From contig CAVVNC010000011.1 of assembly GCA_963749525.1 (NCBI GenBank), positions 5,450-69,449 of the forward strand: 64,000 nt of DNA, in the 5' to 3' direction. Shown piece by piece: positions 44,506-50,582 of the stretch (positions within the stretch are counted from its first letter, which is position 1; each line of letters starts with the position of its first letter). A program made the position numbers and the translations under genes. The DNA comes from an uncultured delta proteobacterium. Lineage in GTDB: Bacteria > Desulfobacterota > Syntrophorhabdia > Syntrophorhabdales > WCHB1-27. The notes beneath the pieces are model-generated. The model was not told the origin of the DNA. It did no database searches and saw nothing but the letters and a program-made list of their open reading frames with translations.

Positions 44506-46257
44506 ATGGGCAGAACCTCTTTGCTATCGGCAGTCTGCGCGCTCTTCCTTCTCTTCGCCGTATCGGAGGCGCACGGGGCAACGATCGCAGCGGGCCTGAG
44601 CCACACCCTCGCAATCAAGGCGGACGGCACCCTCTGGGCGTGGGGCGACAACACGAGCGGCGAGCTGGGTAGGACCGCCCGCCACCGTCGGCAGCACCCT
44701 GCTTTCCCCACAGGCGGATAGCTCCATCCTCCACGTGGACTGCCATTGCCGCAGGATCCGGTTTCACCATCGCAATCAATTCGGACGGCACTCGCTGGGC
44801 GTGGGGAGACAATTCCACCAGCCAGCTCGGGGACGGCTCGAATCACGTCACAGCACTTCCCCGAGCAGATAGCCCCATCCCTCACCTGGACGGCCGTCGC
44901 CGCGGGCTCGAGCTTCGCTGTGGGAATCGAGTCCGACGGCAGCCTCTGGGCGTGGGGCGACAACACGAGCGGCCAATTGGGGATAGGTGTCATCGGCGGG
45001 AGCTCCCTCCTCCCCCAGCACGAAGTTCAGGCCTTCACGTGGAATGCCGTTACCGCTGGGTCGAACTTCGTTGTCGCAATCAAGTCGGACGGCACCCTCT
45101 GGGCGTGGGGCGACAACACGAGCAGCCAGTTGGGCAGGGGTGCGGGCCCTGGGAGTTCGTTTCCCGTGCAGGTAAGCACGGACTCGACCTGGACCGCGGT
45201 CACCGCGGGAAAGGATTTTGCCCTGGCCTTGAAGTCTGATAACACCCTCTGGGCCTGGGGGAACAACGCAAGCGGCCAGTTGGGAGACGGCTCGACCACG
45301 ACACAGACCTCCCCCGAGCAGATAGTTCCATCCTTCACGTGGATCGCCGTTGCCGCGGGCTCGAATTTCACCGTGGCCCTCCGGGCAGACGGCAGCCTCT
45401 GGGCGTGGGGAGACAATTCCAACGGCCAGCTCGGGATCGGGAGCACGATCGGGAGCGCCTCTCCGGTGCAGGTGCCCTTGCTTGGCTGGACCGCCGTTGC
45501 TGCAGGCTCGAATTTCACCGTGTCCCTCCGGGCAGACGGCACCCTCTGGGCGTGGGGGAACAACGGAAGCGGGCAGCTCGGGGACGGCTCAACCACAATG
45601 AGGACATCCCCTGAGCAGATCTTGACCGGCTTCCCCGTATCTCCGGCGGTCATGTCGGTGATTCCCGCAAGCGGCGCCCGCAATGTCAACACGAATACGA
45701 CGATTCAGGCCACTTTCAGCGAGGCCATGGACCCCACGACTATAACGACTGCCACCTTCTCGCTCAGCGGCAACGTGACAGGAACGGTCGCGTACGATCC
45801 GTCGACGAATAAGGCCACCTTCACCCCCACAGGGCACTTGAGCAACCTAACGATGTACACGGCGACGATCACGACCGACGTGAGGGACCTTTCAGGCAAC
45901 AGCCTGCCGGCAAACTTCGCGTGGAGCTTCACCACGGAGCAAAAGAGCAGCCACTGTTTCATCGCCACAGCCGCCTATGGGTCGTATCTCGACCCCAGGG
46001 TCGAGGGCCTGAGGGTCTTCAGGGACAGATACCTCATGACGAACATGGCCGGGAGGTATTTCGTGGACCGCTACTACCGATACTCGCCTCCCCTCGCGGC
46101 CGTGATCGCGCGCCACGAGGCCTTGAGGAGCGTGACGCGGTGGGCGTTGACGCCGCTCGTCTTCGGGGTAATGCACCCGGCCCTCTTCGGCCTTGTTCTG
46201 CTATGCCTGGCGGCTCTCTCTGCGGCAGCGCTCAAACGGGTGGGCCGCCTCAGGTGA
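44506..46257 (+). CDS. Secreted RCC1-repeat protein with Ig-like (Big_5) and CFI-box-CTERM domains; frameshifts near 44690 and 44840
   Basis: Signal peptide; repeated [14 protein letters not shown]; FSEAMDP..WSFTT; [11 protein letters not shown]...LRVFRDRYL...YYRYSPP; C-terminal TM with basic tail. Confidence 0.88.
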
Positions 46258-46269
46258 GGCCGCCGCCGA

Positions 46270-46710
46270 TTAGGGAACCATGACCCGGTCAGGCTCTTTC
46301 CACTGAGGCGCGAAGATCTGAATGACGATCAAGTCCGAGCTGCCCGTATTCTTCACTGAATGTATCTTGCCCGCCCCATTGAAGTGGACGGTGCCCGGCT
46401 TGATCTCGACGACGTTGCCGTCTATCACCATCTGCCCGTTGCCTTCTATCACGTAGACGGTCTCCGAATGGGTCTTGTGAAAATGGGGCTTTACCTCGAC
46501 CCCCGGGGTGAACCTTCCTATGAAGACGCTCGCTGTCTCGTCCTCGCCCACCTTGATGGTCTGCGCCTTGTCCCCCGCTGGCAGAGGATTGGCCTTGAGG
46601 ATGTCGGCGTAGTTGACGACGGCCTGGCTTAAGGGATCGGCCGCGCCGGCAAAAGGAACAAAGGCGAAGAGGAGAAGCACCAGGGTTCCGCAGAAAACCG
46701 CCTTTCTCAT
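46270..46710 (-). CDS. Exported cupin-2 domain protein
   Basis: Signal peptide MRKAVF..AGA; PHFHKTHSETVYVIEG; HSVKN. Confidence 0.85.
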   Translation of the reverse strand: MRKAVFCGTLVLLLFAFVPFAGAADPLSQAVVNYADILKANPLPAGDKAQTIKVGEDETASVFIGRFTPGVEVKPHFHKTHSETVYVIEGNGQMVIDGNVVEIKPGTVHFNGAGKIHSVKNTGSSDLIVIQIFAPQWKEPDRVMVP

Positions 46711-47002
46711 TGATTTCACCATCCACCTCCAGACTCGATATGCGATGCAACCGGAAAACCGGTTCTTCCCGTACAGGCGGCCTTCGCCGTTTTCGCCTTC
46801 GCGAAGCGCTGTCATCGGCGCAAGTGCCCTGCCGATATCAGCCTACAGGTGATCATACAAGTACGCACAATAGCTGTCAAGAGAATCGCCGGCTCCGGTA
46901 TTGGTTGCGTTCCCCCAATTTCTGCTCATTTCCGGGGCCACGCTTGGCGATAAGCCGGATAAGCTAAAGGGACAGCTGACGAGTGGTCTACGGATCGGGC
47001 GA

Positions 47003-47415
47003 CTACTTGGGTTCCGTCGGATATTTGGCTTTGACCCAATCCTCCCAGGCGCCTCTCGGGGTGCTGCCCTTCAGGGAGTAAACTTTCTCCCAGCCTGCCT
47101 TCAGATATGCTTGTGTCAAACTGACACTCGTCGAATCGTTCACTCAGGCGCAATAGAGGACGATGGTCTTGTCTTTGGGATACTTGCTCATCCAGGAGGC
47201 GAATTTCATGCCCTCTTCTCTCACCGCCCCCGGGATCTTCACTTTGCTGTTATCCCAGTCATAGTTCGTGCGCACATCGATGATGACGACGTCGGGCTTC
47301 CCCAGCATGGGACGAAGCTTCTCCTTTGTCATCACATGCGCATCGTCCCCCCAGGCGACGCCGTACGCAAGGGCGATGAGCACCAGCACCACTGTTGATA
47401 CGACGTGTCTTTCAT
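47003..47415 (-). CDS. Exported rhodanese-domain selenoprotein (YCA-U); ATG at 47415 is one base out of frame in an A-run
   Basis: IIDVR..IPGA..IVLYCA-TGA(47146-47144), then 46 in-frame codons VNDSTS...VYSLKG..WEDWVKAKYPTEPK-TAG that complete the rhodanese fold. Confidence 0.88.
47113..47143 (-). promoter_or_regulatory. Bacterial SECIS-like hairpin
   Basis: 16 nt after UGA: GUGUCA-GUU-UGACAC stem-loop with GU at the start of the loop. Confidence 0.75.
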
Positions 47416-47594
47416 AAGCACACCCCTTTCCTTTTGTTTTTACCCTCTGCGATAAGCTTGGGTCTTCATTGGGCTCGCTTTTTCGGGGCCCCCGTCGAAT
47501 GGATCGCGAAACAAAGCCACGGAAGTGAGACGGCCATTGATGGAGTATAATCTCGGCCGTAATCTTTCGCATGGCCTGCCTTCTCTGGGGCCCC

Positions 47595-48398
47595 TTAGTC
47601 CGAATAGAAGCCGGTAAAGGGATTCCCGCTGCCGACGCTCTCCTCTTTTGCCTTGGCTTCTATGCCTTCCAGTATCTTCTTCTCCTCCTTCATCCAGGGG
47701 TTTCTGCCCATGGTCCACGCCGGGAGAACGAACTTCATCTCTTTGAGGTTTTCCGCAACGGTGGGGATCCAGTTCCAGGGCACCGATACTATCACTAATC
47801 CGGGGGGATAGACCTCCCTTGACCTCATGCCGAAACTCAGGCCCGTCACCACATAGTTGACCTTCTGCGCGAGAATGGGATAGGTGTAGAGCCAAGAGCA
47901 CTGGAAGACGGTGGTTGCCTTGGACTCGTACATTTCTCCGGTCGAATAGGTCATGGCCCGCAAGACGATCTCCGCCTGGTCTGCCCGGCCGACAAAGACC
48001 AGAAGGTCCGGCTCGAAGGCCAGCTTGTCGAGCCTCGAGAATACCGCATAGTTGACCTGGCCGGGCTTGAAGGTTTTGTAGTGAGAGATGCACTGCCTAT
48101 TGGCGCGGGCGTTCTGGAAGATGTCCATTCTTTCTCCGATCTCCCCTCCTTCACCCCAGGCCGGACCGTCCATCATGCCCAGGGCGCATTTCCCTGCGCA
48201 GTCCTCATTATCCCTGGATATATAGAAGGGCTTCTCCCTCGCTTGAGCTTCCTTGACCATCTCGCATAAGGCGAGGGTCTTGTCGAGCTGCTCCACGCCA
48301 ACCGGTCTGAAGAACTCATAGTTGATGGCGACCGGCGCCCTTTCCAGCTCCAGTTTGTTGAAGATTGAGAGATCCTGCTTAAGCGGTCGTAGCGACAT
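47595..48398 (-). CDS. DUF169 family protein
   Basis: PVAI..LCEMVKEA..CAG..LG, PDLLVF, CSWL, GLSFGMR pattern; AAGGAGG RBS. Confidence 0.8.
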   Translation of the reverse strand: MSLRPLKQDLSIFNKLELERAPVAINYEFFRPVGVEQLDKTLALCEMVKEAQAREKPFYISRDNEDCAGKCALGMMDGPAWGEGGEIGERMDIFQNARANRQCISHYKTFKPGQVNYAVFSRLDKLAFEPDLLVFVGRADQAEIVLRAMTYSTGEMYESKATTVFQCSWLYTYPILAQKVNYVVTGLSFGMRSREVYPPGLVIVSVPWNWIPTVAENLKEMKFVLPAWTMGRNPWMKEEKKILEGIEAKAKEESVGSGNPFTGFYSD

Positions 48399-48900: not shown

Positions 48901-50582
48901 TGTCCATCCGGAAACCCCAATGCCTTGAAATACCTCGCAAAGAGCCGACAATTCGCTGTCGTTTTCCTCGCCCTGCATGATAGACTATGCCCGCAGTTGC
49001 TTGGTAGCACTGGAAATAACGCTCGCGAGGACATCAAAAATGCGATACAAGTTCAACTCCCAGATGAACCTCTTCTCCCCCATCATGAGAAGCTCGATCG
49101 TGAAGGAGCTCAAAGGCATCTCCGACATCCTCGATGCCACGCCTTCGGTTATGGATCGTGTGTTCAAGGACCTCACCACGGCACGTCGCTCCGATACCGG
49201 CAGGGAGGGAATGACCGCCGAGCAGGTGCTCCGCTGCGCCATCCTCAAGCAGTACCGGGAGTTGACATACGAAGAGCTCGCCTTCCATCTGGAGGACTCG
49301 GATGCCTTCAGGGGCTTTGCCCGGCTCGAGATGGGCCAGTACCCTTCGAAGTCTGTCCTCCAGGAGAACATCAAGGGTATCACCGAAGAGACGTGGGAGG
49401 CCATCCACCGGGACGTCCTGGAGTATGCCGCGAGGGAGAACATAGAGAAAGGCAGAACGATAAGGGTTGACGCAACCGCGGTGGAGACCGACATCCACCA
49501 TCCCACCGATTCGACCCTCCTTGCCGACGGCGTCCGCATCATCACCCGGTGGCTCACCGAGGGCAAGGAACTCGTCCCCCAGCCCCGCTATGAGTTCAGC
49601 GACCACCAGCGAGTGGTAAAGAAGCGGGTCATGGCGATCCTCAACGCCAAGAAGGACGAGGTACGCCAGAGGGCCTATCGGGACCTCCTCCACTATGCAC
49701 ATCTGGTCAAGGGCTACGCCGAATCCGCCATCCCCAAGCTTACCGGCTACGAGGGCCGTACCCTCGAAGACACCTTCACCGGCCGGGAGCTCGCCCGGAG
49801 GCTCATCCGCGCCATACGCATCCTCGGCAAGGTCATTGATCAAACCGATCGGCGCGTCTTCAAGGGAGAGAGCGTCCCCGCCTCGGAGAAGATCGTCTCC
49901 TTCTTCGAGGACCACACCGACATCATCGTCAAGAAGAGACGGGATACCGAATACGGGCATAAGGTCTTTCTCTCCGGCGGTGCCTCTACCATGATCCTCG
50001 GCTGTCTCATCGTGCGGGGCAACCCCGCTGACACCGATCAATACCAATCCCTCCTTGGACAGCACAAGGCCTGGTACGGCCGCATGCCCCAACAGGTAAG
50101 CGCGGACGGCGGCTTCGCCTCGAAGGAGAACCTTGCCTTCGCCACAGAACACCGCATCAAGGACGCGGTCTTTGCGAAGAAGCGGGGCCTCTCCGTCTCC
50201 GACATGGCGAAGAGCACCTGGGTATACAAGAAGCTCCGGAACTTCCGGGCAGGCATCGAAGCAGGCATCTCCACCCTCAAGCGTGCCTTCGGCCTCGACC
50301 GCTGCACGTGGTCGGGATGGGAGGGGTTCAAGCGGTATGTCTTGAGCTCCATCGTCTCCTACAACCTTCTGGTGCTCGCTCGGATCAAACTGGCCTCGGC
50401 CTGATCCCTGTTCGCGGCAGGCATTGTCCACACACGATGGGAGAGCTGCCTCTTGAGTTCGGTATGAATGGCATGCTGACGCAGATTCGCGGCTCGAGCG
50501 AGCGGCACCCGAGGCGTCATCGTCATCCTATCCGGAGAATGCCCGCCTCGGGTACTTCAAAACAAGGGTTTCCGGATGGACA
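48901..50582 (+). mobile_element. Complete insertion sequence (ISNCY/IS5-like DDE), 1682 bp
   Basis: Perfect 17-bp TIR TGTCCATCCGGAAACCC / GGGTTTCCGGATGGACA; CTAG at 48897-48900 and 50583-50586. Confidence 0.95.
49040..50404 (+). CDS. DDE transposase
   Basis: RVDAT..IHHPTDS, SADGGF, RAGIEAGISTLKR, SYNL. Confidence 0.95.
   Translation: MRYKFNSQMNLFSPIMRSSIVKELKGISDILDATPSVMDRVFKDLTTARRSDTGREGMTAEQVLRCAILKQYRELTYEELAFHLEDSDAFRGFARLEMGQYPSKSVLQENIKGITEETWEAIHRDVLEYAARENIEKGRTIRVDATAVETDIHHPTDSTLLADGVRIITRWLTEGKELVPQPRYEFSDHQRVVKKRVMAILNAKKDEVRQRAYRDLLHYAHLVKGYAESAIPKLTGYEGRTLEDTFTGRELARRLIRAIRILGKVIDQTDRRVFKGESVPASEKIVSFFEDHTDIIVKKRRDTEYGHKVFLSGGASTMILGCLIVRGNPADTDQYQSLLGQHKAWYGRMPQQVSADGGFASKENLAFATEHRIKDAVFAKKRGLSVSDMAKSTWVYKKLRNFRAGIEAGISTLKRAFGLDRCTWSGWEGFKRYVLSSIVSYNLLVLARIKLASA

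Follow-up and report, generated by a model that had tools for sequence, protein, structure and literature searches.

A probable exported rhodanese selenoprotein of the catalogued LYCAU family, truncated at its UGA codon by gene calling, in an uncultured Syntrophorhabdales bacterium

Rhodanese-related selenoproteins with a C-x-U motif, in which U is selenocysteine (Sec), have been catalogued in two selenoprotein reviews (PMC9312934 and PMC13188914), where the passages bearing on the family state no tested function; another name of the family is 'rhodanese-like protein form 3, CxU'. PMC9312934 assigns its first prediction to Zhang & Gladyshev (2005, Bioinformatics 21:2580). The same family is described by the NCBIfam equivalog NF041203 ('rhodanese_LYCAU, rhodanese-related (seleno)protein'). 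Further Sec-containing rhodaneses that appear in PMC13188914 are form 1 (UxxS), forms 2 and 4 (UxxG) and TsoB (NF045694). Here we describe a gene on the minus strand of a 64,000-nucleotide (nt) stretch of DNA (the window) from an uncultured delta proteobacterium (contig CAVVNC010000011.1), which is very probably a real selenoprotein gene of the NF041203 family, encoding an exported rhodanese that gene callers truncate at the UGA. The first-pass annotation of the window had presented this gene as a hidden selenoprotein; the family is however not new, being curated by NCBI, named after its LYCAU motif and listed as CxU in both reviews. A full-text literature search with the motif name LYCAU returned unrelated words only.

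The frame of the minus-strand open reading frame (ORF) 47144..47572 closes with ...KDKTIVLYCA, followed by TGA at 47146-47144. With the TGA read as U, the frame runs for 46 codons more (VNDSTSVSLTQAYLKAGWEKVYSLKGSTPRGAWEDWVKAKYPTEPK) to a TAG at 47002-47000, and the translation carries a hydrophobic N-terminal stretch, ...VVLVLIALAYGVAWG-DD. The first-pass annotation had described this truncated ORF, its 46-codon continuation, a hairpin beyond the TGA and a signal-peptide-like N-terminus, and each of these was found in place. The gene matches NF041203 with 148.8 bits (cut-off 115) over profile positions 4-126 of 126, and in a whole-genome scan with the same model it scored 141 bits with one TGA. 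Pfam Rhodanese matches the read-through product (P0001, 133 residues counted from 47404, with U entered as C) at residues 27-114, across the UGA, with an E-value of 1.5e-12. The features of the gene are as follows.

47423..47431, minus strand: Shine-Dalgarno-like GGAAAGGGG, 7 nt 5' of the ATG, read from the letters and putative in function
47413..47415, minus strand: ATG, probably the true start codon, shifted by +1 from the frame of the remaining gene in the assembly; relatives start at the same place
47410..47412, minus strand: 1-nt gap relative to public contigs, all four contigs that cross it having one base more
47348..47404, minus strand: hydrophobic core and end of the signal peptide (VVSTVVLVLIALAYGVAWG), with putative cleavage before DDAH, from the translation and the family alignment
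47063..47326, minus strand: rhodanese domain PF00581, spanning the UGA, from the profile match, the structural model and Foldseek
47150..47152, minus strand: TGC for the invariant Cys two residues N-terminal of Sec (the C of C-x-U), column C85 of the alignment
47144..47146, minus strand: TGA for selenocysteine, from Cys in homologues, conservation of the UGA in the family and the NF041203 match
47113..47127, minus strand: selenocysteine insertion sequence (SECIS) hairpin with a 6-base-pair (bp) stem GUGUCA/UGACAC and loop GUU, beginning 16 nt past the UGA, from covariation
47003..47143, minus strand: 46 codons past the UGA, for the final third of the rhodanese domain through to KYPTEPK, from the alignment and codon comparison
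47000..47002, minus strand: TAG, the true stop, from the letters, the translation and orthologue comparison

The LYCAU motif, signal peptide, KYPTEPK end and SECIS position are those of other NF041203 members, and nothing of substance sets the window gene apart: its copy has the 1-nt gap past the start codon and no adjoining MauE/DoxX gene. The signal peptide was judged from the hydrophobic N-terminus, without a signal-peptide predictor; a hydrophobic segment is present in all 17 rows of the 26-row family alignment that were fetched with an N-terminus, and AlphaFold2 places a low-confidence helix at residues 2-16. At the other end of the protein, Y128, P129 and K133 are invariant over the 26 rows, and the C-terminal ...KYPTEPK is conserved.

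A database search returned 565 homologues. Three of the 120 listed are full length, and the other 117 extend over just 50-65% of the query, corresponding to the part before the UGA. Since these 117 end at the UGA, the window gene is an example of selenoprotein truncation by gene calling. Sixteen homologues were fetched, comprising the three full-length proteins, 12 that end just before the UGA, and one (P0063) that continues in another frame. The full-length P0002, P0003 and P0004 (67-74% identical) read LYCDC or IYCAC and then VNDSTS, with Cys occupying the UGA column, and the more distant Cys-forms at L012, L015 and L016 read FYC[SA]CPN. P0063 (135 residues) continues past ...LYCA with LSERFNKCQFDT..., the +1 frame of the post-UGA region, which suggests that this record has a frameshifted call, or else an indel at the UGA.

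The conservation of the TGA was followed through 41 genomes, consisting of the source genome and 40 relatives. NF041203 was over its cut-off in 22 of them, and the 47 over-cut-off matches listed comprise 37 with one TGA, one with one TGA plus a TAA, four with two TGA and five with none (in-frame TGA in 42 of 47). The motif [LF]YCAU is present in the window gene and in all 11 orthologous genes at the relatives' loci (12 in total). A regular-expression search of 73 public species-representative loci, many of which are records of the same genomes as in the 41-genome search, found 69 family genes in 62 loci (55 CxU, 13 UxU and 1 CxC), with TGA at the Sec position in 68 of the 69. The expression missed the gene in the other 11 loci (nine without a match, and L058 and L110 with a chance match only); a third chance match, in L097, lies beside the true one. 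Both the Cys85 and the Cys/Sec87 columns are invariant in the 26-sequence alignment.

These counts bear on the proposal that a Cys or Trp codon was misread as TGA in sequencing, or that TGA encodes one of the ordinary amino acids in this organism. The source is a draft metagenome-assembled genome (MAG), and nothing else speaks for this proposal, to which we give next to no credence: the same TGA recurs in 42 of the 47 family matches, and the contig rows listed show no difference at 47144-47146. Among 1001 frames of at least 400 codons in the source genome, 459 end in TGA, 328 in TAG and 214 in TAA; as TGA is thus the commonest ordinary stop, it is not reassigned. Downstream of the UGA, the codon differences from the 11 orthologues number 125 synonymous against 95 non-synonymous, and every one of these orthologues terminates directly past KYPT/V-x-PK. 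The synonymous excess and the common stop indicate that the post-UGA frame is coding.

Two kinds of variation within the family were observed alongside. U-x-U forms, in which the codon for the first Cys is also TGA, account for 13 of the 69 family genes in the public loci, with one more at L022, outside that set; the loci concerned are L022, L061, L063, L065, L068, L072, L076, L080, L091, L092, L097, L102, L106 and L107. Tandem arrays of two to three paralogues also occur, for example at G015:C273, G020:C53, G012:C203, G004:C118 and G009:C16. Record titles of the family, in public species-representative genomes, name Syntrophorhabdales, Syntrophaceae, Desulfobacteraceae, Syntrophobacterales and similar groups; two matches are in Candidatus Magnetominusculus and Magnetomicrobium MAGs, and a MAG labelled Acidobacteriaceae has one weak match.

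The hairpin GUGUCA-GUU-UGACAC lies at 47127-47113, its stem beginning 16 nt past the UGA. The bSECISearch model sets a spacing rule for a stem-loop 3' of the UGA, and the window hairpin conforms to it, with a G in the apical loop. When 24 TGA-bearing genes were compared, they aligned gap-free from the UGA onward, and the 6-bp helix was paired in 144 of 144 cells. Compensatory double changes were found in three of the six pairs (U-A/C-G 11 times, C-G/U-A 11 times and G-C/A-U once), a combination of pairing and covariation reached by none of 500 shuffles, and sliding the partner strand by 1-3 columns as a control left only 12-52% of cells paired. RNAalifold, unaided, predicted this helix and no other. 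In all 24 genes the loop opens with G and U, giving a loop of G-U-N; in a wider set, at least five of six pairs are kept in 66 of 68 U-genes, with loops GUG, GUU or GGG, widened in some cases to five bases. The compensatory changes include synonymous ones as well as ones that replace residues (V/T to A/A), so both the RNA and the protein level are constrained. The first-pass annotation had proposed a selenoprotein with a Cys-x-Sec loop, a SECIS just 3' of the UGA with a G opening its loop, and truncation by gene callers, and had suggested aligning the read-through product with homologues; these proposals are borne out by the equivalog match and the Cys found at the TGA position, by the covariation and RNAalifold results, and by the 117 short homologues, respectively.

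The AlphaFold2 model of the protein (predicted local distance difference test score 89.3) has a central strand at residues 80-84, a coil at 85-87 and a helix from 88, and the top Foldseek matches in the PDB are all rhodaneses (3tp9, 3nhv, 2hhg and 6mxv, each with probability 1.00). The best solved relative by sequence is the Francisella rhodanese-like protein 6mxv (E 2.3e-18), which can be aligned ungapped all the way from its active-site Cys to ...GGW..W...YP at the end; unlike the window product it is a two-domain Cys protein with CGGGFRS or CGSGFRS as its loop, and it lacks a Cys at the position two residues upstream. In a sequence profile search of the PDB, both domains of 6mxv aligned ungapped, with their active-site Cys (YFYCGGGFRS and YLYCGSGFRS) on the Sec column. 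The spacing from the catalytic Cys to GG is 26 residues in 6mxv and 6pfz, equal to that from U87 to G113, and the invariant S93 and near-invariant G104 coincide with the usual rhodanese Ser and Gly, as counted in the PDB alignments. On the basis of the ungapped register, the 26-residue spacing and the S93/G104 match, Sec87 is most likely the catalytic nucleophile at the start of the active-site loop, with the invariant Cys85 as an added partner.

The other Sec rhodaneses listed in PMC13188914 resemble the window gene in the rhodanese fold, in having Sec in or near the active-site loop and in occurring mostly in Deltaproteobacteria, but place Sec at a different position in the loop. For TsoB, the window product scored 20.1 bits on NF045694, against a cut-off of 805. 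A second Sec rhodanese gene was observed in the source genome itself, at C5:6174-6536 (L037:575-937, minus strand). It reads ...LVFYCRGSGUEPSKK..., has a lipoprotein-like N-terminus (FLVSSCAP), scores 52.9 bits on NF041203, under the cut-off, and is like form 1 ('UxxS') of the reviews. Its Sec lies five residues past the canonical Cys, whereas that of the window gene follows a Cys by two residues and falls, by register, on the canonical position itself. Geobacter ExtH (PMC5877670), a rhodanese-like protein of another and larger kind, was not counted as a relative.

Several results weigh against the assignment or against parts of it. No experiment on any family member was found in the literature consulted on the family, and RNA-library contigs (X16) from a 90-95% identical relative gave no proof of read-through. 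No Rfam family was matched on the hairpin in a scan of 46500-48000 at E-values up to 10, which gave three chance matches elsewhere, and a single 66-nt stretch folds no better than its shuffles (z -0.53); a single sequence would therefore not have revealed the hairpin, and only the comparative test is informative. With regard to catalysis, the 6pfz alignment sets Cys85, not Sec87, on the catalytic Cys by way of a two-residue gap, and the helix of the model begins directly after residue 87, which makes Sec87 a likely rather than a settled nucleophile. The active-site loop U-V-N-D-S-T contains no Arg or Lys, and an acidic residue (Asp or Glu) is near-constant in it across paralogues. In thiosulfate sulfurtransferases, basic loop residues hold the anion; thiosulfate is thus disfavoured as a substrate.

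The Sec machinery of the source genome also belongs to this side of the balance in part. The assembly consists of 64 contigs (3.10 Mb) and is 80.7% complete, with 29 tRNAs. It contains a tRNA-Sec (tca) at C10:6694-6789 and, about 2 kb from it, a selD gene scoring 377.5 bits, the two together spanning C10:6694-9697 (L011). The selD gene has an in-frame TGA in the glycine-rich loop (GGGUASK) and is thus itself a selenoprotein gene. Neither selA (TIGR00474, PF03841) nor selB (TIGR00475 best 188 bits, cut-off 242; PF09107 none) was found in it. Of the 41 genomes, 37 have selA above the cut-off, both of the same genus among them, and 37 likewise have selB. Given the incompleteness of the assembly and its low number of tRNAs, these absences are weak evidence. 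The first-pass annotation had named a lack of Sec machinery as grounds for giving up the selenoprotein; the tRNA-Sec and the Sec-containing selD are present, and the missing selA and selB weaken the case to some extent.

Together with the 12 of 16 fetched homologues that are annotated as ending just before the TGA, the missing selA and selB favour a reading in which the TGA is a true stop, only a 90-residue half-domain is made, and the 46 downstream codons form either a remnant or a small ORF of their own. This is highly improbable. The downstream frame is conserved, with its synonymous excess and a stop common to 11 of 11 orthologues; it completes the rhodanese fold, and the Cys-forms are full length. 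The hairpin covaries, and both tRNA-Sec and a Sec-containing selD are encoded. The preferred reading therefore remains that the UGA is translated as selenocysteine.

The start of the gene is a further difficulty. The ATG at 47415-47413, which the first-pass annotation had chosen as the start codon while flagging the A-run at 47410-47412, lies +1 to the rhodanese frame in the assembly, and translation from it meets stops after 27 codons. Relatives begin with M-[A/V/K/T]-[K/R]-[H/Y/R]-V... at exactly the place of this ATG, and the closest homologue, P0005 (98% identical), starts MARHVVSTVV, compared with ...AYERHVVSTVV in the in-frame reading of the window. The region was compared with Logan contigs from other samples, among which X3 has no coverage there; no sequencing run contains half of the stretch's words, the best share being 0.34. 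All four contigs that cross 47410-47412 (two from X1, one from X2 and one from X16) have one extra base, which restores ATG-AAG-AGA-CAC (MKRH) in two of them and ATG-GCA-AGA-CAC (MARH, as in P0005) in the other two. Record 8 of X1, with MKRH, is identical to the window over 150 nt except for the extra base. The missing base just past the ATG is most likely an assembly error, and possibly a real lesion in the strain; should the start truly be out of frame, export of this copy may be poor, or the copy may be dead.

In the latter case the family would be real and the window copy damaged by a genuine 1-nt deletion past the ATG, so that either no protein is made, or translation starts at an in-frame GTG (47392, 47389 or 47383) and yields a signal peptide without its charged head, with which export fails. 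The out-of-frame ATG and the extra base in four of four contigs from other samples are what such a deletion would leave, and the region appears to have been rearranged, with an insertion sequence (IS) transposase 1.6 kb away and neighbours unlike those of all orthologues. We consider this damage unlikely, as the gene is otherwise intact, with its Sec codon, hairpin and stop in place, and the near-identical record 8 of X1 fits an assembly slip.

In the preferred reading, SelB with Sec-tRNA(Sec) would bind the hairpin on the translating mRNA and insert selenocysteine, and the ribosome would carry on for 46 codons past the UGA to the TAG. The product, of about 137 residues before processing, would be exported by way of its N-terminal signal peptide. 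Sec would then stand at the catalytic nucleophile position, opening the loop U-V-N-D-S-T-S, and the invariant Cys, which ends the central strand, would precede it by two residues. Such a protein may act as a periplasmic carrier of sulfane sulfur (or selenium), held as an Se-S(n) adduct on the selenol, and the neighbouring Cys85 could release or protect the selenol through a C-x-U selenenylsulfide. By analogy with single-domain rhodaneses of the Sud or PspE type, an exported sulfur or selenium carrier is our best guess at the predicted function, with a purely redox role as a serious rival.

A working model for such a periplasmic sulfur carrier is Sud of Wolinella succinogenes (PDB 1qxn, deposited as 'sulfide dehydrogenase'), a rhodanese that carries polysulfide sulfur in the periplasm. 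Like the window product, Sud is small, exported and single-domain, and the two match with an E-value of 1.6e-5 over residues 14-123; it differs in having Cys instead of Sec, in lacking the C-x-U pair and in being distant in sequence. No polysulfide reductase was seen adjoining the window gene. Rhodaneses of the GlpE/PspE type (PDB 1gmx; NF001195) likewise consist of one domain of about 100 residues, with the nucleophile opening a six-residue loop, but the loop of the window product lacks their basic residue. GlpE is cytoplasmic. On NF001195, the model for this thiosulfate:cyanide sulfurtransferase type, the window product scored 22.2 bits, below the cut-off of 102.

The rival function is that of a thiol/selenol oxidoreductase, in which reduced Cys85/Sec87 would alternate with a C-x-U selenenylsulfide, the rhodanese fold would be a mere scaffold, and a membrane protein of the MauE/DoxX type might recycle the pair. 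A gene for a MauE/DoxX-family membrane protein lies directly 3' of the rhodanese gene in eight of ten orthologous loci (genera g2 and g5 only), mostly in convergent orientation; PF07291 matched the two such genes scanned with E-values of 6e-16 and 1e-21, and a local MauE/DoxX profile gave a strong match in 13 of the 73 public loci and a weak one in five. An oxidoreductase would agree with this neighbour, with the invariance of Cys85 and Sec87 in 26 sequences, with the replacement of the first Cys by Sec (UxU) in 13 of 69 genes and with the absence of basic residues from the active-site loop. Moreover, according to the relevant passage of PMC9312934, most predicted bacterial selenoproteins resemble thiol oxidoreductases. 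On the other side, the mostly convergent MauE gene forms no operon with the rhodanese gene, and among the genomes sampled it occurs in just two genera of one family, whose kinship means that the loci are not independent. In the source genome MauE is found on C61, not beside the rhodanese gene, and it is also absent beside the gene in two genomes of the same genus. We regard the oxidoreductase as possible but less likely than a sulfur or selenium carrier, and the MauE/DoxX neighbour, given the non-independence of kin, as a lead only.

The arrangement was observed 3' of CxU rhodaneses of the VND type at L028-L035, L038, L040-L043, L045-L047, L049, L053, L056, L086 and L110, and the MauE/DoxX gene is on the same strand as the rhodanese gene in L017 and L056.

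In the window, the rhodanese gene is flanked by a DUF169 gene (47595-48398) on one side and by the gene of an exported cupin (46270-46815) on the other, all on the same strand. By local tblastn, DUF169 and cupin genes were found at none of 22 relatives' loci. Nearby, 44746-46257 encodes a 503-residue protein with RCC1 repeats, a Big_5 domain and a hydrophobic tail, a homologue of which adjoins the rhodanese gene in L035 only. DUF169, cupin and RCC1/Big_5 were dropped as functional context on these counts. A DDE transposase gene (PF01609 and DUF772) lies at 48977-50404, 1.6 kb from the rhodanese gene. The nearby IS transposase, together with neighbours unlike those in the same-genus genomes, suggests a local rearrangement.

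A more specific and improbable proposal is that the VND-type CxU rhodaneses and the adjoining MauE/DoxX proteins make up a two-part periplasmic relay. Sec87 would take up sulfane sulfur or selenium, Cys85 would resolve the adduct as a selenenylsulfide, and the membrane partner would draw on the quinone pool or the cytoplasm to reset the pair; in the window organism the two genes would have become uncoupled after an IS-linked rearrangement.

As an addition to the catalogue of selenoproteins the window gene has little discovery weight, since an equivalog model is already named for LYCAU and the family is catalogued and credited to a 2005 prediction. Nor does it make the question of family function, for which the literature consulted on the family holds no test on any member, newly testable. 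It does illustrate cleanly how routine gene calling cuts selenoproteins short. For the family as a whole, the analysis adds evidence from covariation for a very short SECIS (6 bp, a G-U-N loop and a fixed distance of 16 nt), a recurrent MauE/DoxX neighbour for the VND-type CxU rhodaneses, and an argument that Sec, rather than the neighbouring Cys, probably occupies the canonical nucleophile position of the rhodanese fold.

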